Counted from the first letter of the stretch, positions 10,075 to 34,300 are shown. The stretch: 36,077 nucleotides of DNA from Candidatus Poribacteria bacterium (GCA_012270875.1 JAAXHI010000454.1:827-36903); one strand, 5' to 3'. Notes: generated by a model not told the origin, from the sequence alone. Made by a program: numbers and translations.

Positions 10075-13000
10075 ATGAAAAACGACGATGCTCAACTCAT
10101 CCAACGCGTCCTCGCTGGCGATGAAACTGCGTTCTCTACGCTTGTGAAGAAATACCAGAAGTCGGTGCATGCGCTTGCGTGGCGGAAGGTTGGAGATTTT
10201 CACATTGCCGAGGAGATTACGCAGGATACCTTTTTAAAAGCGTATCAGCGACTTTCTACACTAAAGGAACCACAGCGTTTTCTGAGCTGGCTTTATGTGA
10301 TCGCGACGAACCTCTGTAAAGCGTGGCTTCGGAAAAAGCGTTTGCGAACACAGTCGTTGGAAAACACAGAGAGCATAGCGTTAGAAAAAGCGGCGTATTC
10401 AGGATATGTTATTTCAGAAAATGAACAGACAGCGATAGAAGCGCAACGCGAAGCCGTCAAAAAGTTGCTTGCTAAACTCCAAGAGAGTGAACGCACGGTT
10501 GTCACACTGCACTACTTCAGTGAGATGTCGAGTGCGGAGATTGGCGCGTTCTTAGGTGTTTCGGCAAATACAGTGAGAAGTCGTTTACGCCGCGCACAGC
10601 AACGTTTGAAAAGGGAGGAACCGATGATCCGAGAGGCTTTAGAGAATTTCCAAATCACACCAAATCTTACCGAGAACATCATGTGCGAGATTTCGCGTCT
10701 GAAACCAGTTGCGCCATCTGGCAGTAAACCGTTCGCACCATGGGCAATCGGCGTTTCCACATTAGCGGTTGTCTTATTGATGTTAGGCATCGGCAACCAA
10801 CAGTTATCGCGTTTCCAAAAGCCCTATGATTTCAATGCCGCCTCAGAAATGACGGTAGAGATTATTGAAGCACCCATCGTGCTAAACCTTGACTCTAAGC
10901 CAGATGTTCAGACACAGATCGGCAATTCTACTACACTCAGTAGTAACGGTGGTTCAGGGCAGCAACCAGATGATATCTTATTCGCCGCCGCACAAGCTGA
11001 TGGAGAAAACATCTCTACCCCTAAACAAGAATGGATTCAGGCGGAACCCCTCAAAGGGAGTGATGCCACTGCTTTATCTGTCACACCTGACGGTGAACTT
11101 TACACTGTTGCTGATGAGCGTATCTACAAAATCGGATCCGGCGGGAAAATGTGGCAACAGATCACCGATATTAACGCACTGGGTGTTAATTATATGTGGA
11201 CCGCCCGTATAGAAAAGTGGAATGATACACTCTATCTATCAGTGAGTAATGCACTCCTTGCTTCAAAAGATAACGGCAAGACGTGGGAATTGGTTCACTC
11301 TTTCCCAATAGATTATGGCTTGTTTGCTTTTGATTTGGAACTAACACCACAAGCGTTTTATATTATTTTCTCTGATTCCACTGCTTTTCGGTCTGAAGAT
11401 TTGGGTAAGACTTGGAAGGCAATGAACGTTGTCGGATTTCCAGAGAGACCCAACGCTATGGTCGTGTTCCAAGATACGCTGTTTGCCGGAACAGGTAATG
11501 GACTCTACCGATTGAAGGATAACAACTGGGAACGCGTGGACTTTCCAGTCCCTGTCGGAGAAACCCTTTCAATTGCCACGACTGAAGGAAAAATTTATGT
11601 TGCGGCAAAGTTTAATCAAGATAGAACCAGTTCTCAGCGAGTTCGTCAGGGACAGGCACGTGGCTGGTGGATATTCCGATCAACGGACTTCGGCGATTCG
11701 TGGGACGATATAACACCGACAAACGCTTGGCAGGTCATGGGGTTGCCACCAGAAATCAAACTCGTTGCTACGGGTGAAACGCTTCTGGCAATGGAACGGG
11801 GTATGGTTCGCTCTACCGATAGTGGAGACACATGGCTGCCTCGACAATTACCCGGCACCTCACCCCCAATGGACAGATTTAGTTCGGCTGTCGTAGTGAA
11901 CGACAACACCATTTATATTGGTAGCAGCGACGGTCTTTATCGTTCCACGGATGCTGGTATATCATGGAACGCGGTTAACATCAATAGACAGAATCGGAGT
12001 GGCATATATAATCTAACCGCATATACAGGACAGAATACACCGCCAACGCTTTACGCGATGTTCGGCGGAGAGATCGTAAAAACGACCAACAAGGGCAAAT
12101 CTTGGAGAACGATTCAGATGGGAACACCGATGACAGCACCTGATAGAGAAAAACCACCAACTTTTACGCAGATACGTGAATTCGGTGGGAGTGTCTATGC
12201 CAAAACAATGGGTTCTCGTGGTCCTGGCAACGCGCATAAAACCGGTTTATACCGCATTTCTGCAGACGGTAATACAGTCATGCCGATACAAGACGTGCCG
12301 CTCTTTGACTCACAGGAATTAAGTCGATTTTGGAATATAGGAAGGACAGGTGCTTTAGATGTGTCAGATAAGTCGTTCATTGAACAGTTGAAAGAAAATT
12401 TTAAGGGAGCAGACCAGTTCTTTAAAACGTTGGCACGAGGTGGCACTTTCAATCAACAAGAACTTCTTCGGCAACCACTTTATCAGGACCAGTATCGACT
12501 TATACGGAGGGGTATAAGTGGTGCTTTTGCGGTCAGTGACGACACGTTTTACGTGGAATACAACTTTAAACTCTACCGATGGAAGCCGGGCGAAACCGAA
12601 TGGTACGACACGGGTGTGCAAGAGACCGGCGAACTCCTTTATAGGGAAGCAATGAAGGCATTTGAAGGCATAGGTATGCCAGAGGTAAAGATCGATGAAG
12701 TTCTCTCGACTTGGCGGGGGTTCACACTTGCGGTTTCAGGAAACACGGTCTACGTTGGCAAACGGGATGGACACCTCGTTGCCTCGTTTGATATGGGAAA
12801 TAATTGGCTCGACCTCACGTCAGCACTGCCGTTCCCTGTTAAAGCCTTCAAAACCATCGTGTTTGTAGGATCCACCGTGTATGTAGCAACAGATGCAGGT
12901 GTCGCCGCGTCGGATGATGGAAAACAGTGGCATCCTGTTACCAATGCATCAGGAACGTGTCTCAATATGGGACAACTAACTGTTGCGGGAGACACCCTTT

Positions 13001-13164
13001 ACGGTTTTATCAAAGACACAGGTATCTATCGTTTGGAAAGCGGCACTTGGGAACAGGTTGTCTCAGAAATGCCGGATCATGTAGAGGGGTTCGCCGTTGG
13101 CGAGAATACCTTATACGTGAACACGCGGGACAGCAATGTGCTCCATTTCAACCTCGAAAAATAA
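10075..13164 (+). CDS. ECF sigma factor-TM-Asp-box/BNR beta-propeller fusion
   Basis: MKNDDAQLIQRVLAGD start shared with paralogs (ATG 10075). Region 4 EMSSAEIGAFLGVSANTVRSRLRRA, TM PWAIGVSTLAVVLLMLG, RSTDxGxxW repeats. Confidence 0.93.
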   Translation: MKNDDAQLIQRVLAGDETAFSTLVKKYQKSVHALAWRKVGDFHIAEEITQDTFLKAYQRLSTLKEPQRFLSWLYVIATNLCKAWLRKKRLRTQSLENTESIALEKAAYSGYVISENEQTAIEAQREAVKKLLAKLQESERTVVTLHYFSEMSSAEIGAFLGVSANTVRSRLRRAQQRLKREEPMIREALENFQITPNLTENIMCEISRLKPVAPSGSKPFAPWAIGVSTLAVVLLMLGIGNQQLSRFQKPYDFNAASEMTVEIIEAPIVLNLDSKPDVQTQIGNSTTLSSNGGSGQQPDDILFAAAQADGENISTPKQEWIQAEPLKGSDATALSVTPDGELYTVADERIYKIGSGGKMWQQITDINALGVNYMWTARIEKWNDTLYLSVSNALLASKDNGKTWELVHSFPIDYGLFAFDLELTPQAFYIIFSDSTAFRSEDLGKTWKAMNVVGFPERPNAMVVFQDTLFAGTGNGLYRLKDNNWERVDFPVPVGETLSIATTEGKIYVAAKFNQDRTSSQRVRQGQARGWWIFRSTDFGDSWDDITPTNAWQVMGLPPEIKLVATGETLLAMERGMVRSTDSGDTWLPRQLPGTSPPMDRFSSAVVVNDNTIYIGSSDGLYRSTDAGISWNAVNINRQNRSGIYNLTAYTGQNTPPTLYAMFGGEIVKTTNKGKSWRTIQMGTPMTAPDREKPPTFTQIREFGGSVYAKTMGSRGPGNAHKTGLYRISADGNTVMPIQDVPLFDSQELSRFWNIGRTGALDVSDKSFIEQLKENFKGADQFFKTLARGGTFNQQELLRQPLYQDQYRLIRRGISGAFAVSDDTFYVEYNFKLYRWKPGETEWYDTGVQETGELLYREAMKAFEGIGMPEVKIDEVLSTWRGFTLAVSGNTVYVGKRDGHLVASFDMGNNWLDLTSALPFPVKAFKTIVFVGSTVYVATDAGVAASDDGKQWHPVTNASGTCLNMGQLTVAGDTLYGFIKDTGIYRLESGTWEQVVSEMPDHVEGFAVGENTLYVNTRDSNVLHFNLEK

Positions 13165-13174
13165 TGTACCTATC

Positions 13175-13200
13175 AGGGCGGTCCTAAATGCCGCCCTTTC
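13175..13200 (+). terminator. Probable intrinsic terminator hairpin
   Basis: AGGGCGG-tcctaaatg-CCGCCCT-TTC 10 nt after the stop codon. Homologous hairpins at 25353 and 31138. Confidence 0.65.
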
Positions 13201-13237
13201 CTACCTCTACCCTATCTCCCTGTTCAACGTTAACATC

Positions 13238-13265
13238 TTGACAAACCCATCTGGTTTAGTAAAAT
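13238..13265 (+). promoter_or_regulatory. Sigma70-type promoter TTGACA-N16-TAAAAT
   Basis: Consensus -35 at 13238-13243, near-consensus -10 at 13260-13265. Confidence 0.6.
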
Positions 13266-13305
13266 AGTATTTCACTACATCCAACCCTATTTTTCATAAC
13301 ACATG

Positions 13306-13345
13306 CAGAATTATGCACCAGTTTGCCCCTTAAAAAGCGTCACTA
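13306..13345 (+). promoter_or_regulatory. Putative ECF promoter CAGAATTATGCACC-N18-CGTCACTA
   Basis: Same conserved motif; shares TATGCACCAGTTTG with the 9998 copy. Confidence 0.75.
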
Positions 13346-13366
13346 TAGCGCGATCGGAGGGAATTC

Positions 13367-16300
13367 ATGAAAACCACTGATGTTGAGCTCATCTATCGCG
13401 TTCTTGATGGCGACGATACCGCTTTTACTGTGCTTGTGAAAAAATATCATAAACCGGTTCACGCGCTCGTGTGGCGGAAGATTGGGGATTTCCATATCGC
13501 CGAAGAGATTACGCAGGATACATTCTTAAAGGCATATCAGGAGTTAGCAACGCTGAAGAAACCGCAGAGTTTTGCGAGTTGGCTCTATGTGATTGCTGCC
13601 AACAACTGTAGTACGTGGTTGCGTAAAAGGCGTTTATCGACGGAACCATTTGAAGATGCCCGCCTACAAGAGGCGACGTATTCCGGGTATGTCGTTGCCG
13701 AAAACGAGCGGACAGAAGCAGAGGCACAACGCGAAGTCGTCAAAAAGTTGCTTGCGAAACTCCAAGAGAGTGACCGCACGGTTATCACGCTGCATTACTT
13801 CGGTGAGATGTCCAGTGCGGAGATCGGCGCGTTTTTAGGGGTATCGGCAAACACGGTGAGGAGCCGTCTCCGCCGCGCACAGCAACGTTTGAAAAGGGAG
13901 GAACCGATGATACGAGAAGCATTAGAGAATTTCCAAATCACACCAAACCTTACAGAAAACATTATGCGCGAGGTTTCGCGTCTGAAACCTACTGCGCCAT
14001 CAGGTGGCAAACCGTTGGTGCCGTGGGCGATGGGTGTTTCCGTATTAGCAGTCGTCTTTTTGATATTCGGTATCGCAAACCATCAATCCTTATCGCGTTT
14101 CCAGAAGCCTTACAGTTTCAACGCTGCTTCAGAGTTGAAGGTTGAGTTGATTGACGCTCCGGTTGTGCTAAATCTTGAAGCCGAACCCGATAACCGCACG
14201 CAGCTCGGAAATGCCAACGCGCAGGATAAGAGCAATGGCGTTGGTAACCAAGTTGATGATACCGCGCCGTTTGACTTGGAAACAATCATCAGGAAAATAA
14301 AGCACTACGATAATGCTGTCACCTCCGTAACCGGTGATTTCATCATGGAAAGACAGAGTGGCTTGGGGATCTCGAAAAGAGAATACACACTGACGTTTGC
14401 AGGCGAGAAAGTCCGAATGGATCAGGAACAGGATCATACTCGCGTCCAGCTTTGGGATGGAAAACGACATTGGGAAGCACGCGAAGATAGAAGGATGATC
14501 TTTGAATTTGAAATTGCACCCGGCAAGGAAAAGACAGATATTGAGACGATTCGACAGGCATTCAAACATAACGGTATTGATCTCGCGGACGATGTACGCA
14601 TCGTTGATGACGACGAACCCCAAGATTTCACACTTATTGAAAACGAGACAGATCAAAAATACTATTTCTGGTTGGAGGGAGAGACGACGCTGTTGGTTTA
14701 TGACCTTAATCATCTTCAATATGATGTTCGACCTGGGTGGACAGGTAGTGCTGACAATGATCCGCGGTTTTGGCTCACCTTTCGTCCTGCTTCAAACAAT
14801 TCTTATCTATCCGAACCGCTGTGGTACTTGCTTGAGCAACATGAGAGTGAAATTATCGGGAATGAGATATTGAACGGAGACAAGACATCCGTGATTCGTT
14901 TGAATATACCAGCTCAGTCAAAAGGGGACTTCAAAAGACCTGCCCAGTCCGTTAAACTTTGGATTTCCCATGACAAAGGTTTCCGTCTGGTTAAGTTAGA
15001 AGAAAGTGCCTATACTATAGATAACCGGTCAGCGGGGCTCGGTTTCAAAGCGGGTGTAACCTATATTTCAAGCCGAGAAATTGCGTATCACGAATATCTA
15101 CCGGATGTCTGGTTTCCTGAGAGAATTGAGATATCTATTGCTCCTGTGTCATCACCGGACCAACAAGAGAAAGGTGAACCTGTACTCAAAAAGGTTCTAC
15201 TCACAAAGCAGTGTCGATTAAACACTGATGTCACAGGGTTGCTGGATTTAGGTCTACCGCTTGATACATCTATTTTCGATTACGGAACTGGTAAACCGAG
15301 TACAGTCGGCGATGTGTTAAATCCTGTATCGAAACCAGATATTCGGAAACTCTTCGGAAGTTCCGCTATGCCGGTTAAAAGCGATGGATCTGACCAACAC
15401 ACCTATAATCCATCTGTGTTTGACTTGGAAGCGATCATCACACAGATGAAGCACGCTGATAGTTCTGTCGTTTCCGCAAGCGGCAACTTCGTCATTGAAC
15501 ACCATAGAAAGCCGGGAATCGCGAAAACTGAGTATGCCTTAACGTTTGAAGGTGATGGAATCCGAGTAGAACGAGGATGGGGTTCCCCGCTTGCAGTAAA
15601 AGATTATCCACGCCTCAAAAAGGTTTTTCCGTCTGTTGAACTCGACGATGGAGAACGGCGATGGGAGATATATAAGTACAAAAAACACCTCTTTAGCGTT
15701 GAGATCACACTCGATAAGAAGCAGACAGCTCTTGAAACAATTCGACAGGCGTTCAAACAGCAAGAGATAGCACTTGCTGACGATGTACGCATCGTCGCGA
15801 GTGAAGAACCGGAGAGTTACACGCTTATTGAGAACCAGACGGGTAAAACCTACTTCATCTTGTGGGAAGGCGAAACAACGCTGAAAGTTTATGACCTTCA
15901 ACATACCGAATATGGTATCCGCGATCCATTTCGACGCAAAGTTTCTGACCGTCGTTTCGAGAGTCCACTTCGCTATCAGTGGAATATGCTTGCTGATCTC
16001 GATCCGAGATATTGGCTCACGTATCCAAGTGCTGGTGGAAGGACCTATCTCACAGAACCGCTTTGGCAGCTCCTTGAGAAGCACGAGAGCGAACTCTTGG
16101 GTAGTGAAGTTTTGAACGGTGATGAGACTTCAGTTATTCGTCTAAAGTTACCTGATGAGTCCCTTATCATCTGGATTTCTCATGAGAAGGGTTTTCGTCC
16201 GGTTAAGCTGCAAAGAGCATTTCCGCTTGAGAATCATCCGGTGGATATTATCGCAATGAAGTACTTCCAGTCGGGTGTGAACTATATAGAGACACGGGAA

Positions 16301-16810
16301 ATTGATTATCGCGAATATTTACCCGATGTCTGGTTTCCCAAGAAGATTGAACGGTACTTTACACCGATCGCAGCAGCAGATCTGCCACACGTCGCTGAAA
16401 TCATCCTAAAGACTGTGATTCACACGAAGCAGTGTCGGTTAAACACGGATGTTGCTGAGTTACTCCGTTTAAACCTGTCGCCTGATACACCTGTTCTCGG
16501 TTTAAAACCAGACGACGATACACCAATAGCGGAAAAAGTGGCATATTTACGTCAAGAAATCCCGCGTATCCTTAAACACCGCCTTGACTTAGAGAAACTG
16601 GATGATGAAATTGCTGAGTCTTACGGGGAAGACCCAGATCTTACCTTACTAAGGGATCAAGCTGCAGATGAAGCATTCGCACTGAAAGGGACTATCAGCC
16701 TTTTAACTTTAGACTACATACGATTTGCCGCGGATTCCTCAGCTCTTAAACCGGGCGGAGATTTTTATGAACTGTTGGAGAAAAACGGCATTTTTTATGA
16801 TTTTGAATAA
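13367..16810 (+). CDS. ECF sigma factor-TM fusion with a tandemly duplicated extracytoplasmic domain of about 380 aa (possible LolA/RseB-like fold)
   Basis: ECF regions 2 and 4, then TM. Repeats start FDLETII (14270) and FDLEAII (15419); each contains DPRxWLT, YLxEPLW, WISHxKGFR and EYLPDVWFP. Confidence 0.9.
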   Translation: MKTTDVELIYRVLDGDDTAFTVLVKKYHKPVHALVWRKIGDFHIAEEITQDTFLKAYQELATLKKPQSFASWLYVIAANNCSTWLRKRRLSTEPFEDARLQEATYSGYVVAENERTEAEAQREVVKKLLAKLQESDRTVITLHYFGEMSSAEIGAFLGVSANTVRSRLRRAQQRLKREEPMIREALENFQITPNLTENIMREVSRLKPTAPSGGKPLVPWAMGVSVLAVVFLIFGIANHQSLSRFQKPYSFNAASELKVELIDAPVVLNLEAEPDNRTQLGNANAQDKSNGVGNQVDDTAPFDLETIIRKIKHYDNAVTSVTGDFIMERQSGLGISKREYTLTFAGEKVRMDQEQDHTRVQLWDGKRHWEAREDRRMIFEFEIAPGKEKTDIETIRQAFKHNGIDLADDVRIVDDDEPQDFTLIENETDQKYYFWLEGETTLLVYDLNHLQYDVRPGWTGSADNDPRFWLTFRPASNNSYLSEPLWYLLEQHESEIIGNEILNGDKTSVIRLNIPAQSKGDFKRPAQSVKLWISHDKGFRLVKLEESAYTIDNRSAGLGFKAGVTYISSREIAYHEYLPDVWFPERIEISIAPVSSPDQQEKGEPVLKKVLLTKQCRLNTDVTGLLDLGLPLDTSIFDYGTGKPSTVGDVLNPVSKPDIRKLFGSSAMPVKSDGSDQHTYNPSVFDLEAIITQMKHADSSVVSASGNFVIEHHRKPGIAKTEYALTFEGDGIRVERGWGSPLAVKDYPRLKKVFPSVELDDGERRWEIYKYKKHLFSVEITLDKKQTALETIRQAFKQQEIALADDVRIVASEEPESYTLIENQTGKTYFILWEGETTLKVYDLQHTEYGIRDPFRRKVSDRRFESPLRYQWNMLADLDPRYWLTYPSAGGRTYLTEPLWQLLEKHESELLGSEVLNGDETSVIRLKLPDESLIIWISHEKGFRPVKLQRAFPLENHPVDIIAMKYFQSGVNYIETREIDYREYLPDVWFPKKIERYFTPIAAADLPHVAEIILKTVIHTKQCRLNTDVAELLRLNLSPDTPVLGLKPDDDTPIAEKVAYLRQEIPRILKHRLDLEKLDDEIAESYGEDPDLTLLRDQAADEAFALKGTISLLTLDYIRFAADSSALKPGGDFYELLEKNGIFYDFE

Positions 16811-16874
16811 GAAAAATTTATAGATCATAGGGGCAGGCGATGGTTTTCGAGTCAGTGAATATTAGGAGCAAGCA

Positions 16875-18239: not shown

Positions 18240-18252
18240 AAAAGATAAAAAA

Positions 18253-18281
18253 TTGACTGTCCCCGGAATTTGTGGTAAAAT
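18253..18281 (+). promoter_or_regulatory. Sigma70 promoter of the TA operon: TTGACT-N17-TAAAAT with TG extension
   Basis: -35 at 18253-18258, TGG at 18273-18275, -10 at 18276-18281. Confidence 0.7.
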
Positions 18282-18320
18282 ACTGGAAACTGTGACCTTG
18301 GACAAGGAGAAGCTTAAAAG

Positions 18321-18554: not shown

Positions 18555-18567
18555 GGTCGAAAAATAG

Positions 18568-18897: not shown

Positions 18898-18959
18898 CCG
18901 TTCGTTGTCAAAAAATTAGAATCTCAACCCTCTTATCATGAACCCACTCCATTTTTTTG

Positions 18960-18998
18960 CAGAATTGTGTGACTTTCTCATCTCAAACGGCGTCACTA
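18960..18998 (+). promoter_or_regulatory. Putative ECF promoter CAGAATTGTGTGAC-N17-CGTCACTA
   Basis: Conserved motif ending 45 nt upstream of ATG 19044. Confidence 0.75.
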
Positions 18999-19043: not shown

Positions 19044-21881
19044 ATGAAAAACAGTGATGTTCAACTTATCCAACGCGTGCTTGATGGCGATGATACGGCG
19101 TTCTCCGCACTCGTGAAAAAATATCAGCGATCTGTTCATGCGCTTGCGTGGCGGAAGGTCGGAGATTTCCACATCGCCGAGGATATCACACAAGAGACGT
19201 TCCTAAAAGCGTATCAGGGACTCTCTACGCTAAAGGAACCACAGTCCTTTGCGAGTTGGCTCTATGTGATAACGGCGAACCGTTGTAATACTTGGCTGCG
19301 TAAGAAACGTTTACGGACGCAGTCGTTGGAAGACACAAGCAGCACACAGTTAGAAAAAGCGACGTATTCTGGATATGTCATTGAAGAAAACGAGCGGATG
19401 ACGGTCGAAACACAACGCGAAGTCGTCAAAAAACTACTCGCAAAATTAAAAGAAAGCGATCGGACTGTCATCACGCTTTATTACTTCGGGGGAATGACGT
19501 ACGAAGAGATCAGCAAGTTTCTGGGTGTATCGGTAGGTGCGATTAAAAATCGTGTTTACCGTGCTCAAGAACGTCTGAAGAAGGAGGAACCGATGATACG
19601 AGAGGCTTTAGAGCATTTCCAAATCACACCGAGCCTTACGGACAACATCATGCAAGAAATCTCACGTTTGAAACCTGTTGCGCCATCAAGCAGTAAACCG
19701 TTAATTCCATGGGCGGTAGGTGTTTCCGCGTTGGTCGTCGTGTTTTTGATGTTGGGGGTCGGGACGCAATACTTATCGCGTTTCCAGAAACCTTACAGTT
19801 TCGATGCTGCAGCTGAGATGACAGTTGAGCTCATTGAAGCACCCGTCGTGCTAAACCTTGAATCTAAACCGGATGTTCGGACGCAGTTGGGGAATGTCAG
19901 CACGCCGAGCAAAAGCGATACCGCCAATCAGCATCCTAACGAGGTTTCAGCATTGGTCGCTGAATCACAAGCAGATAATACGGTTAATAAAGACTATTCA
20001 CAAGGGGAACTGCCGAAAGAGGCGAAAGCACGGTTCGGAAAAGGTGGTATTAATACGATCCAGTTTTCACCGGACGGCACGCAACTTGCAGTTGGAAGTG
20101 ACATCGGTGTATGGCTGTACAATGTTGAAACAGGTAAAGAGGAGTCTCTGTTTGCAGGGATGTGCCATACGCTTGCATTTTCACCCGATGGTCGCTTCTT
20201 GGTGAATAGCGGTGGCATGTTTCGCGGGCAGGAACTCCAATTGTGGGACATGGCTGCTGCCCGTAAGGTCCCCCTCATTGGTGGACCCTTTGCCGGATCT
20301 GCATTGCAGTTTTCTGAAGATAGCAAAACACTCATCAGTTTAGGTAACTTCGGGGACAGACTTTTCCGGTTAGATGTTGAAAGTGGACAAGGAAATGTGC
20401 AGAAGACCGAAGCAGAATTTGGTATGGGGAGACCTTATCCTGAGGTCTTCGCACTCACATACGATAAAATTGCGATTGGATGGGATGATGGGAAAATACA
20501 GTTGTGGGATCCAAAAACGGGTAAAGCGTTATCGACGCTCGACGGACATGCAATGCCAGCGGATATGTCGGATGATAAAAAAGTCTTAGCATTAGCATTT
20601 TCACCCGATGGTACTCGCCTTGCCAGTGGAAGCAAGGATAAGACGGTGCGCTTATGGGATCTCACCAACGCCGACGACGGGATTATCCTTCAAAAACATA
20701 CCGGATGGACAAATGTGTTAGTGTTTTCGCCGGACGGGAAAATGCTTGCTAGTGGGAGTGTCGATAAAACAGTGCAGTTGTGGGATACTGCCACGGGTGA
20801 GTCACTCGCGACATTGACTGGCAATACCAGTAGTATTAATGCGCTAACGTTTTCACCTGATAATAGTGTGCTTGTAAGCGGAGGGGCGGATGGCACTCTC
20901 CGATTTTGGAATACAGAAACAGGAGTTTCGCTACCGCTCCATATCATAGGACACATGGCATCGATGAGAGCAGCGACTTTTTTTCAAGGTAGTTCCACGC
21001 TTGTAGGTGTAGCATTTAATGGGGAAATTACCTTTTGGAATCTGAAAACGCCGCATAAGTCTATTGTTCATACGGCAGGCCATCGAGATTTGTTCCCGAC
21101 TTTAGCGTTTTCACCGGATGGTACGAAACTCGCCAGTGTTGGTGCCGAGGGCAGCATAATCTTCGGTGTACGCGGTATCGCCAGTTGGTGTCCAGATTCT
21201 TTGATTCGTTTGACGGATGTCAGCACGGGGAACGAATTGGCGACCCTTACAGATATTGGAGTCCCTTCAAACCTGACTTTTTCGCCTGATGGAAAAATAG
21301 TAGCCTTTAGTAGTCACGGTAAAATTAGCTTGTGGAATACAGAAACAGGGATTTTAGTTGATACCTTTCTTCCGCCCGCGAGTGCTTTGGCATTCTCATC
21401 AGACGGGAAAAAACTCGTTACTGGCACTAAGGAGGGAGATGTTGAGATGTGGAATGCGGAAACCGGGGTTGCGGTAACTTCCTCTATAGAACTTGATGGT
21501 TTTAGCAATACTGTAGCACCTATCAGAGCCTTGGTATTCTCTCCAAATGGTACGCTGCTTGCTGTGGCAAAGGATGAAGGCATTTATTTGTTGGGAAGTA
21601 ATAAAGAAATTCATCTTAAAGAAAGGCACCACCGTGGTGGCAGAACGTTAGCGTTTTCGCCAGATAGTACTGTATTTGTTGTTGGACTTAGATATGGCAA
21701 CATTGAGTTATGGGATTTGATAAAGGGAAACAAACTTACTACACTCAATGGACATACAGAAGAAGTGAAGATGTTAGCATTTTCACCTGATGGTCAAACG
21801 CTTGTCAGCACAGGAGAAGATGGCACAATTCTCTTGTGGGATTGGGATGAAATCCTCACAGGTTCATCTAAAAACGAATAA
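19044..21881 (+). CDS. ECF sigma factor-TM-WD40 repeat fusion
   Basis: ECF regions 2 and 4 (GMTYEEISKFLGVSVGAIKNRVYRA), TM, then LPKEAKARFGKG and many AFSPDG..LASGSxDKTVxLWD repeats. Confidence 0.93.
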   Translation: MKNSDVQLIQRVLDGDDTAFSALVKKYQRSVHALAWRKVGDFHIAEDITQETFLKAYQGLSTLKEPQSFASWLYVITANRCNTWLRKKRLRTQSLEDTSSTQLEKATYSGYVIEENERMTVETQREVVKKLLAKLKESDRTVITLYYFGGMTYEEISKFLGVSVGAIKNRVYRAQERLKKEEPMIREALEHFQITPSLTDNIMQEISRLKPVAPSSSKPLIPWAVGVSALVVVFLMLGVGTQYLSRFQKPYSFDAAAEMTVELIEAPVVLNLESKPDVRTQLGNVSTPSKSDTANQHPNEVSALVAESQADNTVNKDYSQGELPKEAKARFGKGGINTIQFSPDGTQLAVGSDIGVWLYNVETGKEESLFAGMCHTLAFSPDGRFLVNSGGMFRGQELQLWDMAAARKVPLIGGPFAGSALQFSEDSKTLISLGNFGDRLFRLDVESGQGNVQKTEAEFGMGRPYPEVFALTYDKIAIGWDDGKIQLWDPKTGKALSTLDGHAMPADMSDDKKVLALAFSPDGTRLASGSKDKTVRLWDLTNADDGIILQKHTGWTNVLVFSPDGKMLASGSVDKTVQLWDTATGESLATLTGNTSSINALTFSPDNSVLVSGGADGTLRFWNTETGVSLPLHIIGHMASMRAATFFQGSSTLVGVAFNGEITFWNLKTPHKSIVHTAGHRDLFPTLAFSPDGTKLASVGAEGSIIFGVRGIASWCPDSLIRLTDVSTGNELATLTDIGVPSNLTFSPDGKIVAFSSHGKISLWNTETGILVDTFLPPASALAFSSDGKKLVTGTKEGDVEMWNAETGVAVTSSIELDGFSNTVAPIRALVFSPNGTLLAVAKDEGIYLLGSNKEIHLKERHHRGGRTLAFSPDSTVFVVGLRYGNIELWDLIKGNKLTTLNGHTEEVKMLAFSPDGQTLVSTGEDGTILLWDWDEILTGSSKNE

Positions 21882-22250: not shown

Positions 22251-22289
22251 CAGAATTGTGAAACTTTTTAATGACTCGTCGCGTCACTA
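22251..22289 (+). promoter_or_regulatory. Putative ECF promoter CAGAATTGTGAAAC-N17-CGTCACTA
   Basis: Conserved motif. TGAAAC..CGT resembles classical ECF promoters. Extended -10 TGCTATAAT further upstream at 22122-22130. Confidence 0.78.
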
Positions 22290-25331: not shown

Positions 25332-25352
25332 TAGAAATCAATATATCTTACC

Positions 25353-25529: not shown

Positions 25530-27860
25530 ATGATTTGCGACGCTTTAGACAATATTCAATTCATGCCAAATGCTACACAGCGCGTAGGACGTGAAATGCT
25601 ATGTACCAAATCTACTAAACTGTTAGTGTCATGGACAATCGCTGCTTTGATGGTGATTGTGCTGCTGATGCAGACACATCAGGTCTTAGCCAACCAAGAG
25701 GACTATACCCGATGGGGATTACCTAAAGGTGCCAAAGCACGGATCGGGAAAGGTGTGTTCACTGATATGCAGCTATCACCGGATGGCACGCGTTTGGCGA
25801 TTGCGAGTTCCGCAGGTGTCTGGCTTTATGATGTCAGTACAGGGGATGAGATTGCGCTTATCACGGAGAATACGACTCTCATCGGACAGGTCGCCTTTTC
25901 TCCTGACAGTACAACGCTTGCGACTGCTGGTGGGGACAACAAATGTCAAATCTGGGATGTTGAAAGTCGGACACTTCTACTGACATTCAAGATGCCTGAT
26001 TATTGGATCAAGACATTGGCATTCATGGATGACGGAAAAACCCTCGTCGGCGAAGGGATAATTGACAAAATCTCACACCCTCTGTTGGGGGGTGGACCTT
26101 GGATGTGGGATGTTCCCAAGGTCTGGATGTGGGATATCCAGACTGGAAAGCAGTTAGATACTTTCACCACTGAACTGCCGAGATTCAATCCGATGAAAGA
26201 TGTGCGGTCCAGTGTCATGGTAAAGGCATTTGCCAATAACGATCGTGTTATATTTGCCTTTGAGAATAAAGACGGAACGATTAGCGTCAAAGATGGACGC
26301 ACTAACCGCGAAGTAGCTGTGCTTCCCAATCTTAATGACGAGGTAAAAGCGTTCGGTTTTTCACCAGATGGTAAAGGGGTTGCCATTGCGACTTCAAGGG
26401 ACGTACATCTCTGGGACCTTGAGACAGGAGAACAGATACTAACATTTCCAAAGCAGGTTGCAGATTTCTATGGAAATCCGTCTATACTGGCATTCTCAAA
26501 AGATGGAAAAACGCTTGCCGTTGCGGGTTTAGACGACATTGAGATATGGAATATGGATACGCATTCGCATGTTGCTACACTTAAAAATACAGATGGCGGT
26601 TTGTGGGAATTTGTGTTATCAAGGGACGGCGCAACCGTCATCACTATGAATCACCACGGCAGGGTAGATTTGTGGTCGGCACAGACCGGCAAACATGAAC
26701 GCACCTTGACGATAGGATATACGAATAGATTCTCCAAGTTGGCGTTCGCGCCCGATGGGAAAACGATTGCGAGTAGCACGGGTAGCAAAGTTCACCTGTG
26801 GGATACAAACACTCGGACTGAAAGATTGCGGATGCAACTGCCCGGACGCATTGAAAATGAAAAAAAACGGGTTGAACCGGATTTGCGAGCCGCTGTGCCG
26901 ATAGAACGTGGAAGTGAAATCATCGGCTTAGCGTTTTCTGAATATAACACACCGCTCGCTGCTGCCGCGTATAGCAAAACTCTCGTCGCTTTTACCGTTT
27001 CCGGCAAAGTTGAAATATGGGATGTCGCTACTGGAGAATATAGTGCCGATTATACCCTCGCGGACATGCCTCGTAAAGGGATGCCAGGGCTGTTAGCACC
27101 CGATTTGACTGCTGTGCCAACGCCTCGGACCCCGGGAATATATCACCTCTTCGCAACACCGTTTGAGAGATCAGGTCACGCCTTGTATGCAGCTGCCTTT
27201 TCACCAGATGGTGAAAAACTAACTGTTAAAAATCGGGACGACGTGATGGAGATATGGGATGTTCTGACCCGTAGACGCTTATGCACACTCCCAGATCGCT
27301 CTCCAAACAAGAGTGCCGCGTTGGCATCTACGTTGGCATTCACACCGGATGGCGAAGTGCTTGCGATTGGTGAAGGTGCGGATGTCCATCTGTCACATAC
27401 GGATACAGGTGAAACGTTTGCCATATTCAGCGTCTCTCAGGAGAAACCGAATGCGATAGATAAATTACAAGGATTGTTCGACTCGCAGCGTTTTGATGTA
27501 TCGGTCGGTGCCGTAGCATTAGCGCGCCCTGGAAAACTTCCGGCTGTTGCTGCGAGTGGAGGCAAGACAATTTATTTTTGGAACATCGCAAAGCGGGAAC
27601 CTATTACGCTCAAAGAACATACAAGTGAAGTCTGTAAACTGGCGTTCACACCCGACGGCACTGTTCTGGCAAGTGGTGATGTTGATGGGACAATTCACTT
27701 GTGGTCGCTGCCCGCAGGAGACAAAATTGCCACATTCAATCCGTATGTGAGTCCCGTTAGTCAGTTAGTTTTCTCACCTGATGGAAAAACTCTTGCAAGC
27801 ACAAACCTACATTCTCGTTTTGCTGGAACGATACTCCTTTGGGACGTTCCACCCAAGTAA
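25530..27860 (+). CDS. Membrane-anchored or secreted WD40 protein; sigma-less paralog of the ECF-WD40 fusions
   Basis: AAGGAGGG RBS before ATG 25530. N-terminus MICDALDNIQFMPNATQRVGREM..KLLVSWTIAALMVIVLLM aligns with the ECF linker + TM. EDYTRWGLPKGAKARIGKG then WD40 repeats. TGGTATAAT at 25460-25468. Confidence 0.88.
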   Translation: MICDALDNIQFMPNATQRVGREMLCTKSTKLLVSWTIAALMVIVLLMQTHQVLANQEDYTRWGLPKGAKARIGKGVFTDMQLSPDGTRLAIASSAGVWLYDVSTGDEIALITENTTLIGQVAFSPDSTTLATAGGDNKCQIWDVESRTLLLTFKMPDYWIKTLAFMDDGKTLVGEGIIDKISHPLLGGGPWMWDVPKVWMWDIQTGKQLDTFTTELPRFNPMKDVRSSVMVKAFANNDRVIFAFENKDGTISVKDGRTNREVAVLPNLNDEVKAFGFSPDGKGVAIATSRDVHLWDLETGEQILTFPKQVADFYGNPSILAFSKDGKTLAVAGLDDIEIWNMDTHSHVATLKNTDGGLWEFVLSRDGATVITMNHHGRVDLWSAQTGKHERTLTIGYTNRFSKLAFAPDGKTIASSTGSKVHLWDTNTRTERLRMQLPGRIENEKKRVEPDLRAAVPIERGSEIIGLAFSEYNTPLAAAAYSKTLVAFTVSGKVEIWDVATGEYSADYTLADMPRKGMPGLLAPDLTAVPTPRTPGIYHLFATPFERSGHALYAAAFSPDGEKLTVKNRDDVMEIWDVLTRRRLCTLPDRSPNKSAALASTLAFTPDGEVLAIGEGADVHLSHTDTGETFAIFSVSQEKPNAIDKLQGLFDSQRFDVSVGAVALARPGKLPAVAASGGKTIYFWNIAKREPITLKEHTSEVCKLAFTPDGTVLASGDVDGTIHLWSLPAGDKIATFNPYVSPVSQLVFSPDGKTLASTNLHSRFAGTILLWDVPPK

Positions 27861-27949
27861 AACCGACCGCGTCATGGGTAACACCAAATCAGAAAGATAA
27901 AGTCACATTATAGAGATTTTGGAACGCTATGAGGTATCGGTCTGTAAGA

Positions 27950-28003
27950 GCGCAATAATGCACGTCGCATTTGGGCGAGTACGCCGCAGAATTGCGCTAC
28001 TAC
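27950..28003. repeat. REP-like stem GCGCAAT..ATTGCGC-TACTAC enclosing dispersed repeat copy 2
   Basis: GCGCAAT 27950-27956 pairs with ATTGCGC 27991-27997; the inner 31 bp match 417-447. Confidence 0.75.
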
Positions 28004-28059
28004 GAGCGGGTTTTTCCTTAGTGAGAGGCGTTTATTTAGAAATGGTATAATCATTATTG

Positions 28060-28099
28060 CAGAATTATGCAACCGTTTTCCGCCTAAGTCGCGTCACTA
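28060..28099 (+). promoter_or_regulatory. Putative ECF promoter CAGAATTATGCAAC-N18-CGTCACTA
   Basis: Conserved motif. It lies inside the ORF-track extension 28057-28143, which supports ATG 28144 as the true start. Confidence 0.75.
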
Positions 28100-28143: not shown

Positions 28144-29754
28144 ATGAAAAACGACGATACCCGACTGATTCAATGCGTCCTTGCCGGCGATGATACTGCT
28201 TTTGCTGAGCTTGTGAAAAAGTACCAGAAGCCGGTTCACGCGCTTGTGTGGCGGAAAGTTGGTGATTTCCACGTCGCCGAGGAAATTACACAGGACACCT
28301 TCCTGAAGGCATACCAGAAACTGACGACGCTCAAGGAGCCGCAGCGTTTTGTGAGTTGGCTTTATGTAATAGCCACGAACCGTTGCAAGGCATGGCTGCG
28401 TAGGAAACGTTTATGGATGCAGTCGTTGGATGCCACGAGTAGTAGGCAGTTGGAAAAGGCTACATATTCTGAATATGTCATTTCGGAGAACGAACGCGTA
28501 ACAGTAGAAACACAGCGCGAAGTCGTCAAAAAGCTGCTTGCGAAGTTACAGGAGAGTGAGCGGACAGTCATGACACTCCACTATTTCGGGGAGATGACGT
28601 GTGAAGATATTAGCAAGTTTTTGGGTGTATCGGTAGGTGCGATTAAGAGTCGGCTCAGGCGTGCGCGCCACCGCTTAAAGAAGGAGGAACCCATGATACG
28701 CGAGGCTTTAGAACATTTCCAAATCACACCGAATCTGACAGAGGATATCATGCGCGAGGTTTCGCGTCTGAAACCGATTGCGCCGTCTGGTAGCAAGCCG
28801 TTCGTGCCGTGGGCAATCGGCGTTTCTACGTTAGCAGTCATCCTTTTGATGTTAGGTGTCGGAAACCGTCAATACCTGTCGCGTTTCCAAAAATCGTATA
28901 GTTTTGATGCGACTTTAGAGATGAGCGTTGAACTCATTGATGCACCGATTGTGTTGAATCTTGAATCCAAACCTGATGTTCGGACGCAGCTCGGCAATGC
29001 TGCCACCCCCAGTAAAAACGACGGGTTCAGTCAACAACTCGATCAACCAGAACATACAACCCTATTTGCTGCCGCGCAGGTAGATCAAACTGAGAAACCT
29101 ACTGTTACTGATAAAGGTAATCGCTACATCATCCTTGAGACAAGCACCCATGAGGAAGGTGGAGAAGTTTTTGCGAGCGGAAGTTTTTCTTTTACGAGAA
29201 CAGGTGAGATTTTGACAGTTACAAAGGCTGGAACTACCGGGACCGGTAAAGGTGACGCAACCCCGATGTACGTGTTGATGAGTTATATTCTCAACCATAA
29301 TATTGACCTTTTCAAGTTCCCTTTGGTTATAGGAGATACTTGGACACAGAAAGGTCCCTGGGCCCCACACATACAGACGACCTTAGTGGGTTATGAAAAG
29401 GTAGAAGTTGCCGGAGGGACTTTCACGGACTGCCTTAAGCATGAAACGCTTTTTACAAACGCGAGGGTAGGTGCTGGCACGCGTTATTTGTGGTTTGCCA
29501 AAGGGGTTGGTGTCGTTAAAATGCGCTATGAACATTCCAACGGTGTCACCACTGAAGCAGAATTGCTTAACTACAATGTTCCGAAAGGCGAAGAATATCT
29601 CCCTTTGCAATACGGTAATATGTGGACCTACAGATTGCAAAACGAGTCTCAAGAAAAACCGATTATTGAAAAGTGCGAGGTTGTCGAAAATAGCGATCAG
29701 CCCTTAGATTCTGTCGATTCTTATTTTTTTCTCACGCTCCTCCAAAAGCTCTGA
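28144..29754 (+). CDS. ECF sigma factor-TM fusion, 5' part; appears to continue by a -1 frameshift at T7 (29724-29730) into the next ORF
   Basis: MKNDDTRLIQ start with GGAGA RBS, ECF regions 2 and 4, TM, then a domain with VEVAGGTFTDCLK..WFAKGVGVVK. Ends with a short tail after the T-run. Confidence 0.88.
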   Translation: MKNDDTRLIQCVLAGDDTAFAELVKKYQKPVHALVWRKVGDFHVAEEITQDTFLKAYQKLTTLKEPQRFVSWLYVIATNRCKAWLRRKRLWMQSLDATSSRQLEKATYSEYVISENERVTVETQREVVKKLLAKLQESERTVMTLHYFGEMTCEDISKFLGVSVGAIKSRLRRARHRLKKEEPMIREALEHFQITPNLTEDIMREVSRLKPIAPSGSKPFVPWAIGVSTLAVILLMLGVGNRQYLSRFQKSYSFDATLEMSVELIDAPIVLNLESKPDVRTQLGNAATPSKNDGFSQQLDQPEHTTLFAAAQVDQTEKPTVTDKGNRYIILETSTHEEGGEVFASGSFSFTRTGEILTVTKAGTTGTGKGDATPMYVLMSYILNHNIDLFKFPLVIGDTWTQKGPWAPHIQTTLVGYEKVEVAGGTFTDCLKHETLFTNARVGAGTRYLWFAKGVGVVKMRYEHSNGVTTEAELLNYNVPKGEEYLPLQYGNMWTYRLQNESQEKPIIEKCEVVENSDQPLDSVDSYFFLTLLQKL

Positions 29755-31203: not shown

Positions 31204-31243
31204 CAGAATTAAGCAACCATTTTGCCCCTAAATTGCGTCACTA
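31204..31243 (+). promoter_or_regulatory. Putative ECF promoter CAGAATTAAGCAAC-N18-CGTCACTA
   Basis: Conserved motif ending 46 nt upstream of ATG 31290. Confidence 0.75.
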
Positions 31244-31289: not shown

Positions 31290-34200
31290 ATGAAAAACAA
31301 CGATGTTGCACTTATTCAACGAGTTCTCGCTGGTGATGAAACCGCTTTTGCTGAACTGATAAAAAAATATCAAAAGCCAGTTCACACGTTGGCGTGGCGA
31401 AAAATCGGGGATTTTCATATCGCTGAGGACATCACCCAGGAGGTCTTCCTGAAAGCGTATCAGAGACTCCATATCCTGAAAGATCCGAACCAGTTTTCTG
31501 GATGGCTTTATGTGATTACGGCGAACTTATGTGCCACATGGCTCCGCAAAAAACGGATACAGACGCAACCGTTGGGGGACACAGAACCAACGATGATACA
31601 AGAAGATACTTATTCTCGACATGTTGTAGAAGAGCGAATGAAAACCACAGCGGAATCACAACGCGAAGTCGTCAAAAAGCTGCTGGCGAAGTTGAAAGAG
31701 AGTGAACGCACAGTGATGACGCTCCACTACCTTGGTGAGATGACGGTTGCAGAAATTAGCCGATTTTTAGGCGTATCGGCGAGTACCATTAAAAGTCGTT
31801 TGAGACGGGCACGAAACCGTTTAAAAGAGGAGGAGCCGATGATTAGAGAAGCACTTGAGCATTTCCAAATTACACCGAATCTTACAGAGAATATCATGCA
31901 AGAGATATCGCGGTTGAAACCGGTTGCACCGTCAGGCAGTAAGCCGTTAGTGCCGTGGGCAATGGCTGCTTCTACAGTAGCAATCGTCCTTTTGATGTTC
32001 GGCATGGGAAATCAGTATATGTCGCGTTTCCAAGAGCCGTATAGTTTCGACGCGCCATCAGAGATGACAGTTGAGCTCATTGAAGCACCCCTTGTGCTGA
32101 ACCTTGAGGTCTCCAAACCCGATATTCGGACGCAACTTGGGAGTGTTCGCACACCGAACGAGGGAAAGATCTCCAACCAGCAGCCTAACGACGTTTCGGC
32201 ATCGGCTGCAGAAGCCGAAGCAGATGAGAGAATTAAAAACTACGCGCATTGGAAGCTGCCCAAAGCCGCAAAAGCACGTTTCGGAAAAGGTGGGATTACC
32301 ACAATTCAGTTTTCACCGGATGGAACCCTACTCGCAGTGGGTAGTAATATCGGGGTATGGCTGTATGATGTGGCAACAGGTGAGGAGAAATTTTTGTTTG
32401 GTAGTGGAATGTGTGAAGCCCTCCAATTTTCACCTGATGGCCGTTTCCTTACTGCTTCTTCTGAGGAGACGCTCATCCAATTATGGGAGATCGCTACCGG
32501 GCGCGAAGTGCCGCTTATTGATTTGTACGGAGAAGCTTCCGTATTGCGATTCTCTTCAGATGGGAAAACGCTGATCGGTTTGTATAGTGATGGGCATGCT
32601 GCGATTACGCGATTGAATATTGAGAGCGGTAAAGGGAAAACAAAACACCTTAAAACTGGGTTATTCGGGATCGGTCTCTTGAGTTGGGAGGATTTTAGTG
32701 GTGTTTACGCGATGACGGGCGATAAAATCGCGATTGGCAAACCGGACGGGACGATTCAGTTATGGGACGTAGCAACCCGTAAAAAGTTATCGACGCTCAG
32801 AGGACACGTAGATTTGCCGCTTCAGCCGTTAGATAAACTTGTGCATCGCAAACGTCCGTTTAGCAGACGGATTTTAGCAGTGGCGTTTTCGCCGGATGGT
32901 ACCCGTCTCGCCAGTGGTGGGGCAGATAATACAGTCCGATTGTCGAATCTCACTGGCGATCGAGATTCGATGACGTTGCAGAAACATACTGGACCGGCAA
33001 ATGTGCTGGCGTTTTCACCCGATGGAAAAATGCTTGCCAGCGGCAGTACCGATAAAACAGTGCAATTGTGGGACACCGCCACTGGCGAACCCCTCCTGAC
33101 GCTCACCGGCCATATCAACGGTATTACGGCGTTAGCATTTTCACCCGACGGTAACCACTCGTAAGCGGGAGTACGGATGGCACAATCCGATTCTGGCAGA
33201 CAGCAACTGGGGCTCCAGCAGATACCCTTATTACTGGACACACACAATCCATAAAAGCGGCGACCTTCTTTCAAGATCGTAATAGGGGCGAGGTGACCTT
33301 GAAGAAACACCCAAGCAAAAACCCCCTACTGGTAAGTGCGGCGTTTAACGGTGAAATTACCTTTTGGGATGTGGACGCAGCGCAGCGTAGGGACGAGGTG
33401 ACCACGCCCCTACGCCAAAATAGTGGACATCGGGATTGGTACTTAGCTTTAGCGTTTTCACCGGATGGCACGAAACTCGTCAGTGCAGGGACAGACGGTA
33501 CGAAAGTTTTCGGTGGGTTCCCTACTGGATTCTCTATTATTACGAAGCCAGATAATCTAACTCGGTTGACGGATGTATCGACTGGAGCCGAACTTGCGAC
33601 GTTGCAGCGAGGAAGCAGCAAACTTATCTTTTCTCCTGACGATAGAACTAAAACGGTGGCGATTACTTCGAGAGGTGCCATTCGCTTATGGAATACGGAA
33701 ACAGGCGATGAATTGGTCATTCCGATTCATGATGACCTACCCCTCGGCTTTCACCACAATGTGCCAACGGTTTTGGCAGTGGCGTTTTCGCCAGATGGTA
33801 GATGGCTTGTGAGTGGAACTACAGAAGGGGAAATCCGAATGTGGGACGTTGCGACCGGTGAAGCTTTGACCGTCTTTTCAGAACTGACAGAACCGATGGA
33901 ACAAGAGCATCTGAGGCATATTTCGGCATTGGCGTTTTCACCGGACCGCGCCTTGCTCGCTGCGGGTACACCGACGCAACTCCATTTATGGGACGTGCGT
34001 ACCGGTCATAAACTTTTTTCGGTTAGCACTGTGTATACACGCGGTTGGCGGACATACCATGATTATCCAAAACCGTTGGTGTTTTCGCCGGATAGTGCAA
34101 TTCTCCTCAGTGGGCATGGGGGCGGGACAATCCAATTATGGGATGCCAAGACTGGAGACAGCATCGCTGCGCTTGATGGGCATACACAGCAAGTGGAGAC

Positions 34201-34300
34201 GTTGAAATTTTCGCCTGATGGGGAAATGTTGGTTAGCACGGCACAGGATGGCACAATCTTTTTGTGGGATTGGGATGAGGCTATCACCGAATTACGTTAA
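31290..34300 (+). pseudogene. ECF sigma factor-TM-WD40 fusion split by a 1-nt deletion near 33156 (ORF-track pieces 31290-33164 and 33293-34300)
   Basis: After FSPDGN the WD40 text continues in the other frame as LVSGSTDGTIRFWQTATG, colinear with LVSGGADGTLRFWNTETG of 19044. Restored length about 1003 aa, ending DGTIFLWDWDE like 19044. Confidence 0.85.
33385..33415. repeat. REP-like palindrome inside the coding frame
   Basis: GCGTAGGG-acgaggtgaccacgc-CCCTACGC, encoding RRDEVTTPLR. Related TAGGGGCGAGGTGACCT..CCCCTAC at 33283-33329. Confidence 0.75.

Follow-up and report, generated by a model that had tools for sequence, protein, structure and literature searches.

Tandem sigma-sensor genes and their protein design

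The stretch of DNA analyzed here (hereafter the window: 36,077 nucleotides, contig C350:827-36903, where a window coordinate is the C350 coordinate minus 826) belongs to a Candidatus Poribacteria metagenome-assembled genome (MAG) from a sponge symbiont (5.7 Mb, 598 contigs, 81% complete), and the genome records of its relatives are likewise titled Candidatus Poribacteria. It holds seven same-strand paralogs, designated A to G and starting at 627, 10075, 13367, 19044, 22335, 28144 and 31290, which combine an extracytoplasmic function (ECF) sigma factor, a single transmembrane (TM) helix and a C-terminal domain referred to here as the sensor. We interpret the window as part of a tandem array of membrane-tethered sigma-sensor genes in which recombination re-assorts sensors with sigma and promoter types, a reading with an estimated probability of about 80% whose signaling role is deduced from sequence. 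Member A (627-3704), the seventh and more distant paralog, was absent from the list given in a preliminary description of this DNA. The features that carry the argument are given below, with promoter scores from a position weight matrix (PWM).

Gene A, 627..3704 (+): ECF sigma, TM helix, BNR/sortilin-like sensor; Pfam Sigma70_r2, r4_2, Sortilin-Vps10/BNR
Promoter of B, 9992..10029 (+): -35 TGCACC, spacer 17, -10 CGTCACTG; PWM score 21.8
Gene B, 10075..13164 (+): sigma, TM helix, BNR sensor
Conversion tract in B common with C, 10441..10701 (+): alignment columns 130-219, about residues 123-209
Promoter of C, 13308..13345 (+): -35 TGCACC; PWM score 32.3
Gene C, 13367..16810 (+): sigma, TM helix, "C-type" sensor (no Pfam family; two internal repeats)
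Partner tract in C of the B conversion tract: about 13724-13984
Promoter of D, 18962..18998 (+): -35 TGTGAC, spacer 16; PWM score 23.5
Gene D, 19044..21881 (+): sigma, TM helix, double WD40 propeller sensor (Pfam)
Conserved block of D (residues 181-285), 19584..19898 (+): linker, TM helix (about 222-241), juxtamembrane segment (246-283)
Promoter of E, 22253..22289 (+): -35 TGAAAC, spacer 16; PWM score 27.3
Gene E, 22335..25331 (+): sigma, TM helix, BNR sensor
Sigma-less derivative, 25530..27860 (open reading frame (ORF) 25488-27860) (+): remnant sigma4 end and linker, TM helix, WD40 sensor
Promoter of F, 28062..28099 (+): -35 TGCAAC; PWM score 33.6
Gene F, 28144..29754 (+): sigma, TM helix, short "F-type" sensor (weakly DUF3108-like)
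Promoter of G, 31206..31243 (+): -35 AGCAAC; PWM score 29.6
Gene G, 31290..34300 (+): sigma, TM helix, WD40 sensor; two frames, frameshift near 33152-33158

The common N-terminal module (N-module) spans about 290 residues and comprises sigma2, sigma4, a linker of about 40 residues, one TM helix and a juxtamembrane block of about 40 residues. The linker carries the motif EEPMIREALE.FQITPNLTENIM.EISRLKP and is followed by the single hydrophobic helix and by the juxtamembrane motif SRFQKPYSFDA..EMTVELIEAP.VLNLESKPDVRTQLG, after which a low-complexity spacer separates the N-module from unrelated C-terminal domains (BNR/sortilin-like in A, B and E; WD40 in D and G; types of their own in C and F). 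The sensor is predicted to face outward and the sigma part to be cytoplasmic, the two being joined by the one TM helix.

The window proteins are ECF (group IV) sigma-70 factors with sigma2 and sigma4 domains only. Pfam Sigma70_r2, Sigma70_r4_2 and Sigma70_ECF are above cut-off in A, B, C, E and F and are shown for G, while NCBIfam TIGR02937 (cut-off 42.9) scores 109.8 bits in D and 101.1 bits in B. No NCBIfam model narrower than TIGR02937 reaches its cut-off for D and B; TIGR02989, the Rhodopirellula/Verrucomicrobium family, gives 92.7 bits, below its cut-off of 124.55. Neither FecR nor any other anti-sigma Pfam domain was found in the seven window proteins, and the linker has no Pfam match. 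In an alignment of 49 sequences, the block columns K218, P219, P222, W223, F247, Q248, P250, Y251 and A255 are invariant or nearly so, and C81 is the sole nearly invariant cysteine; a sigma4 cysteine ("MTC") is found in F and is absent from B, C, D, E and G. An AlphaFold2 model of D residues 1-300, built from the same alignment, places sigma2 with confidence and sigma4 with moderate confidence.

The sensors of C and F, together with three neighboring ORFs, gave weak Pfam matches only (DUF3108-like, E 0.0009; LVIVD, E 0.00011). Searches of a protein atlas returned leads only, for C to planctomycetal hypothetical proteins and TP_0789-like proteins, and for F leads only; the F-type domain also occurs in relatives, in sensors of 670-802 residues. 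Composite sensors, with a C-type domain and, after it, a WD40 propeller attached to a single sigma-TM protein (G002_29572p, G008_35811m, G001_14262p), indicate that the sensor part is itself modular.

At least 31 full members are present in the source genome, where 44 tblastn matches included 3 weak ones, 2 dropped for runs of N and 8 without the TM module. These eight TM-less sigma genes, on contigs C231, C157, C149, C156, C568 and C174, bear other, non-membrane extensions, and their sigma domain is 45-57% identical to that of D. Classified by all-against-all BLAST from residue 301 to the end, the sensors of the 31 members comprise 18 BNR, 7 WD40 and 6 others that stand alone. Single-linkage clustering of sensors across genomes was abandoned after it fused C-type with WD40 sensors through the composite ones, and was replaced by labeling against reference sensors. 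Within the genus, all 18 genomes searched hold 19-76 matches (E <= 1e-30), often in long tandem arrays, and three other families of the order hold 3-13 matches or none. A protein search that scored 8000 candidates returned at least 5340 relatives; the best 120 of these have an N-module at least 80% identical to that of D, and Pfam assigns their sensors to WD40 (about 86), BNR/sortilin (19), transglutaminase-like (7), CarboxypepD_reg-like (2) and Big_5 (1), with none recognized in 5.

Sensor types and sigma4/-35 types

According to the preliminary description, sensor type and sigma4/promoter type are uncoupled in this array, and the pairings it named hold throughout. B and C have near-identical sigma4 domains (a 26-residue motif is identical, as are 84 of 92 residues in alignment columns 126-220) and the same 15-nt -35 stretch, TTATGCACCAGTTTG, with unrelated sensors: that of B is BNR/sortilin-like by Pfam, and that of C has no BLAST match to it. 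D and E have in common the leader GAACATTCCCT[A/G]TCCAGAGGTATCCGATG and the motif GGMTYEEIS, joined to a WD40 sensor in D and a BNR sensor in E. Viewed from the sensor side, B and E carry BNR sensors with 53% identity over 739 aa, which the BNR sensor tree groups as sisters (100/100), and the two genes differ in sigma4/-35 type (TGCACC vs TGAAAC); the WD40 sensors of D and G are 57% identical over 308-323 aa, with the types TGTGAC and AGCAAC, respectively.

At the nucleotide level, B and C are 0.89 identical in sigma4 and 0.71 in sigma2, the corresponding sigma2 values being 0.80 for B-D and 0.79 for B-E; D and G reach 0.81 in the juxtamembrane part. Gene B is a mosaic whose 5' leader and sigma2 are closest to D/E and whose -35, sigma4 and linker are closest to C, and the N-module of E is closest to D in residues 1-180 only. 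Gene A belongs to a more distant subfamily (N-module identity to D about 50%); a search of the 150 nt upstream of it yielded no family promoter, and its combination is stable in an orthologue in G002 (sigma 87%, juxtamembrane 89%, sensor 84%).

Tree comparisons over the 31 genes point the same way. On the maximum-likelihood tree of the N-module the sensor class changes 11 times (minimum 2, shuffled mean 12.0); shuffled labels gave as few as 11 changes in 55 of 200 cases, and the well-supported branches alone force at least 5-6 changes. In approximately unbiased (AU) tests, sigma data reject the sensor clade {C502, C169_32861, C169_40699, C204, C169_36046} with p-AU 8e-41, and sigma residues 1-215 reject {B,E} (p 0.02) and {D,G,C314,C221} (p 0.006). 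Tested in the other direction, BNR sensor data reject the sigma-defined group {B, E, C502, C169_32861}, the subfamily-1 BNR genes, with p 0.00018. The preliminary description had named congruent trees without breakpoint signal as the outcome that would speak against shuffling; the trees are incongruent in both directions and the breakpoint signal, described below, is strong. Together, these results support the uncoupling of sensor type from sigma module and promoter type.

ECF promoters generally consist of an "AAC"-like -35 element, a 16-17 nt spacer and a "CGT"-containing -10 element. A strict promoter of this type lies within 150 nt of 19 of the 31 genes, and a genome scan with the PWM derived from those 19 found 48 sites at a score of at least 20, compared with 6 in shuffled DNA; 23 of the sites precede family genes and 25 lie elsewhere. 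In the case of F, the promoter sits downstream of the TTG at 28057, so that the true start is the ATG at 28144. All promoters share the frame AATT.TG..AC, 16-17 nt, CGTCAcTA, within which six sigma4/-35 types were distinguished, each with its own sigma4 motif. The types are listed below with their spacers and numbers of genes, the non-family sites found in type-specific genome scans, and the hits in shuffled DNA (all sites).

TGCACC: spacer 17; 14 genes; 15 non-family sites; shuffled-DNA hits 1
TGCAAC: spacer 17 (16 in one); 11 genes; 4 non-family sites; shuffled-DNA hits 0
TGAGAC: spacer 16; 10 genes; 3 non-family sites of doubtful quality; shuffled-DNA hits 0
TGTGAC: spacer 16; 6 genes; 0 non-family sites, own promoter only; shuffled-DNA hits 3
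AGCAAC: spacer 16 or 17; 6 genes; 3 non-family sites of doubtful quality; shuffled-DNA hits 0
TGAAAC: spacer 16; 3 genes; 0 non-family sites, own promoter only; shuffled-DNA hits 2

Distances between -35 blocks follow those of residues 151-180, corresponding to sigma4.2 (Mantel r 0.40, 0/2000 permutations), while every other segment, the adjacent 5' gene end included, gives r between -0.04 and 0.21; the partial Mantel correlation with sigma4.2, controlling for the other segments, is 0.41 (0/2000). Among 61 further genes from other Poribacteria MAGs, 46 have a recognizable promoter, and the nearest sigma4 motif predicted the hexamer correctly in 44 of these 46 (chance 13.7), a replication rather than an independent test since the genes are relatives. 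On these results, the sigma4/-35 pairing is real. A simpler one-residue rule, in which the G or S before F in "EIGxF"/"EISxF" sets the -35 base, was tried and fails across the type table.

Each major -35 type carries 2-6 sensor classes. The TGCACC type is associated with 7 BNR, 3 C-type, 1 F-type and 3 WD40 sensors, and the TGAGAC type with 1 BNR, 1 C-type, 1 C-type+WD40, 2 F-type, 4 WD40 and 1 other. In the set of further genes, TGAGAC goes with 9 BNR, 3 F-type, 5 WD40 and 1 other, TGAAAC with 4 BNR, 1 C-type+WD40, 1 F-type and 5 WD40, and TGTGAC with 4 BNR and 6 WD40. Judging from the genome scans, the TGCACC and TGCAAC types likely have further targets. An extended TGCACC consensus, AAATTATGCACCCTTTTCGCC..AAATTGCGTCAyTA, stands before non-sigma genes on contigs C142, C149, C181, C385, C420, C439 and others, and the candidate TGCACC regulon includes an ABC-2 permease, an ABC ATPase, a DUF5694 protein, an M16 peptidase, a MoxR AAA ATPase and a STAS protein.

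Recombination among paralogs and the crossover zone

The pairwise homoplasy index (PHI) detected recombination both in six window genes (observed 0.429 vs 0.479 +/- 0.006 in permutations, 0/1000 as low) and in 11 close paralogs (0.686 vs 0.718 +/- 0.005, 0/1000 as low). Triplet maximum chi-square tests reached values up to 99.5, and in all eight triplets 0/300 permutations did as well; the triplets had been picked after viewing sliding windows, and the largest chi-squares survive any correction. With B as the child and C and D as the parents (chi-square 43.5, 0/300 permutations), 55 sites inside the tract favor C and 9 favor D, as against 52 and 91 outside it. In C502 and C169_32861 the parent changes from a subfamily-1 gene to a C169_36046-like one at alignment column 230-234 (chi-square 99.5 and 97.3), at about residue 220-224, which is the cytoplasmic edge of the TM helix.

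The transferred tracts are also those most alike at four-fold synonymous sites. B and C are identical at 28/37 such sites in columns 126-220 vs 3/13 in columns 61-125, their value of 0.76 being the maximum of all subfamily pairs (median 0.47); D and E are identical at 21/25 sites (0.84) in codons 1-60, and C502 and C169_36046 at 0.57 in the 3' part vs 0.20-0.31 elsewhere. This agreement at synonymous sites reflects common descent and rules out amino-acid convergence. The sigma4 common to B and C is an internal conversion patch, which means that sigma2 and sigma4 are uncoupled as well. As the B/C and D/E patches demonstrate, conversion also has endpoints within the sigma domain and at the 5' leader. 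By its incongruent segment trees, its breakpoint signal and its synonymous-site signal, the family is a mosaic.

For comparison across species, arrays were taken from four other genomes of the genus. G005 keeps the D combination (sigma 90%, sensor 90-91%) and the G combination (sigma 96%, sensor 86%), while other arrays hold different pairings. In G002_22601 a G-type sigma is joined to a D-type sensor: identity to the G-type sigma is 0.87-1.00 over most of residues 1-210 (0.77 at 91-135), identity to the D-type sensor is 0.72-0.96 from residue 376, and the parent switches between residues ~210 and ~375. In G001, an E-type sigma (93%) carries a WD40 sensor. Whole-genome searches placed the best matches of the D and E sensors within the arrays compared. 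At the orthologue level (sigma >= 85%, sensor >= 75%, thresholds of our choosing), 27 directed comparisons matched sigma and sensor to the same gene in 13 cases and to different genes in 14, the genes compared being kin and reciprocal pairs being counted twice. The re-assortment of sensors with sigma types therefore continued after the species of the genus had diverged.

A breakpoint map was drawn from 68 genes, namely 31 of the source genome and 37 from the other arrays; the nearest relatives by sigma and by sensor were discordant in 24, concordant in 11 and unclear in 33. Single-breakpoint estimates for the 24 discordant genes fall at residues 177-190 (3), 212-240 (8), 254-274 (6) and >=288 (7); since residues 1-180 served to define the sigma parent, breakpoints before 177 cannot appear. 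Linkage to the sensor climbs across the linker/TM/juxtamembrane block: the Mantel r between local nucleotide distance and sensor distance is 0.15-0.18 for residues 1-120, 0.17-0.23 for 121-210, 0.27 for 211-240, 0.30 for 241-270 and 0.44 for 271-295. The preliminary description had placed the crossovers in this block, which is mostly right: 14 of the 24 discordant genes have their estimate inside it. The B/C sigma4 resemblance is an internal patch and no crossover in the block. These data support the block as the main crossover zone of the family. Recombination takes two forms: conversion patches of about 0.3 kb, and crossovers from the sigma4 end onward, most of them inside the conserved block.

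Several observations weigh against the re-assortment reading, besides the kinship of the genes compared across species, the concordant and unclear genes of the breakpoint map and the fixed interval of the sigma parent. The weakest triplet (chi-square 19.2) would fail a family-wide correction. For most deeper clades the BNR sensor and N-module trees are congruent, which indicates that the family also diverged vertically. Four of the six -35 types have no clear target beyond the gene's own promoter in the scan of the 81%-complete genome. Residues 191-300 of the D model have a predicted local distance difference test (pLDDT) score below 50 and the model a predicted template modeling (pTM) score of 0.33, so it is silent on whether the linker packs against the sigma domains or serves as an anti-sigma element. 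Sensing, sigma release and "rewiring" are all read from sequence; no RNA run was found to contain the stretch.

Purely vertical divergence, with the shared sigma4 and leader produced by convergent or unequal selection on protein function, would draw on the strong constraint on sigma4 and linker and on the congruence of the deeper BNR clades; it is already contradicted by the four-fold sites of B-C and D-E, and the PHI results, the AU rejection of congruence both ways and the orthologous sensors found on different sigma modules in different species make it very improbable. We consider it more improbable still that the mosaics are assembly chimeras, created by a short-read metagenome assembler jumping between paralogs at the conserved block. 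Such errors might be suspected in a MAG of 598 contigs, in which window paralogs have exact stretches of up to 59 nt (D-E) and 41 nt (B-C) in common, and Logan contigs from all four public runs do end within N-modules. However, contigs of run X5, obtained in another study from another sample, run from sigma4 or sigma2 into the sensor in three genes with 0 differences (C 13882-18089; D 19584-21846; E 22433-23795), the D and G combinations recur in the G005 assembly at 86-96% identity, the clearest chimera, G002_22601, sits in a single-contig genome of 6.3 Mb, and the other window pairs share at most 30 nt exactly. Paralog joints in the public runs (19028-22323, 19885-23197, 10218-19767 and others) have sides of 20-31 letters that may stem from other paralogs or strains, and they weigh neither for nor against ongoing recombination in the population.

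A stronger competitor, though in our judgment an unlikely one, accepts the recombination and denies it any effect on wiring: it would be mostly homogenizing gene conversion (concerted evolution) among neighbors, with types that cross-talk on near-identical promoters or only activate their own gene. Neighbors are indeed often sisters in the N-module (D/E; C280_9615/C280_7528 at 99/94; C169_36046/C169_40699), one promoter frame is common to all -35 types, and the four types mentioned above have no convincing target besides their own promoter. Against this, the -35 element tracks sigma4.2 and not the physically closer sigma2 (r 0.40 vs 0.14-0.18), which, with the pairing being right in 44/46 new genes, is the outcome expected of selection for specific recognition. 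Furthermore, the -35 types are kept across species while the sensors vary, and TGCACC sites occur before non-sigma genes (those for ABC transporter parts, the M16 peptidase, the MoxR ATPase and the STAS protein).

Other features, related systems and proposed mechanism

The sigma-less derivative stands directly 3' of gene E, and its N-terminus, "RLKEGTPMICDALDNIQF..", aligns to the family sequence "RLKKEEPMIREALEHFQI..". An orthologue that likewise lacks sigma lies in the G008 array (G008_17041m, 76% identity over 440 aa), and the member at 25488-27860 may be a deletion product turned into a stand-alone membrane protein. Gene G and the ORF at 33293-34300 are one frameshift-split gene: a tblastn comparison with its G005 orthologue, whose frame is open over 996 aa, aligns orthologue residues 1-629 to one frame as far as 33152 and residues 632-989 to another frame from 33158. 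Either the gene was recently inactivated or the frameshift is an assembly or sequencing error.

Directly 3' of gene A, the region 3758-8962 contains five tandem PD40 (TolB-like) beta-propeller paralogs of 337-390 aa. Between C and D (16875-18897) lie genes for a 454-aa protein with a weak LVIVD-repeat match and for a 109-aa DUF5615 protein, and both may be co-transcribed with C. Two intergenic repeats were also identified, one of about 118 nt at 21960-22078 with some 20 more genome copies at 87-98% identity, the other of about 65 nt at 27945-28015 with roughly 60 BLAST matches; in the public runs, both stand out by peaks of depth and numerous loose ends.

The comparison with ECF57 is by described features. 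ECF57 (formerly ECF01-Gob) of Planctomycetes joins an ECF core to a long C-terminal extension rich in WD40-like repeats and averages 5.3 copies per genome (PMC7826278, PMC8999054). More generally, most planctomycetal ECF sigma factors carry WD40, and paralogization and domain shuffling have shaped such families (PMC8567305), the sole relevant paper found on gene conversion or domain shuffling among ECF sigma paralogs. The proteins described here resemble ECF57 in combining an ECF sigma, a membrane helix and a WD40-rich extension in several copies. They differ in phylum (Poribacteria), in number (19-76 matches per genome in the 18 genomes of the genus) and in that one N-module carries at least five kinds of sensor rather than WD40 alone: the WD40-like extension of ECF57 is seen here in D and G and not in A, B and E (BNR) or C and F, and in 7/31 members of the genome. 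The two conserved cysteines of ECF57, a possible sigma2-sigma4 link (PMC8999054), are not found here, where only C81 is general. The accessible ECF57 literature contains no description that we could find of recombination breakpoints or of cognate sigma4/-35 types.

IutY of Pseudomonas putida, an ECF243 sigma/anti-sigma hybrid, is cleaved by Prc and then by RseP, which releases its sigma part (PMC8999054). Like IutY, the Poribacteria proteins place a cytoplasmic ECF sigma, a TM segment and an outer domain on one polypeptide; unlike it, they lack a FecR-like anti-sigma domain, have a linker of only about 40 residues and use propellers as sensors. By analogy, IutY is the best model for their possible activation. 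With ECF41, ECF42 and ECF56, which have soluble C-terminal extensions, they share the union of sigma and regulator in one protein ("one-component" sigma factors). In contrast to those groups, the variable part here sits on the far side of a membrane helix and is not coupled to the core, and only the linker/TM/juxtamembrane block is constant. Among ECF proteins with fused extensions, those with one type of extension also group together by ECF core, which has been taken as a sign of contact between extension and core (PMC7826278). This rule fails for the outer domains here, where the variable part lies beyond the membrane and recombination occurs at the adjoining constant block.

Sponge-associated Poribacteria are known from single-cell genomics for abundant "eukaryote-like" WD40 proteins, and sigma factors are not mentioned in the accessible part of that account (PMC3909097). 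A search outside subscription papers found none linking Poribacteria with ECF sigma factors, and none among the matches listed treats Poribacteria, sigma-70 and WD40 together. At least some of these WD40 proteins belong to membrane-tethered sigma factors, as their sensors.

In the mechanism we propose, the sensor would bind an external cue, and the resulting signal would free or activate the tethered sigma factor, most likely by proteolytic cleavage within the conserved juxtamembrane/TM block, regulated as it is in fusions of the IutY type. The genome does encode a Peptidase_M50 member, but so do all 14 control genomes, which makes its presence uninformative. The freed sigma factor would then drive its own promoter and whatever else bears its -35 type, and each crossover would, if so, link an old input to a different output.

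The natural series of sigma4/-35 pairs makes specificity directly testable and is of practical interest for orthogonal gene switches, and with 19-76 matches in each of 18 genomes the family offers a good system for studying the pace at which signaling networks are rewired by recombination among paralogs. More tentatively, and in our view rather doubtfully, Poribacteria may possess a natural mix-and-match toolkit with at least six mutually orthogonal sigma4/-35 pairs and a library of sensors, in which the conserved block would serve both as signal-release device and as recombination cassette and the arrays would rapidly make and try sensor-promoter links inside sponges. If so, the family would parallel, in bacteria, the diversification by recombination known from eukaryotic receptor families.

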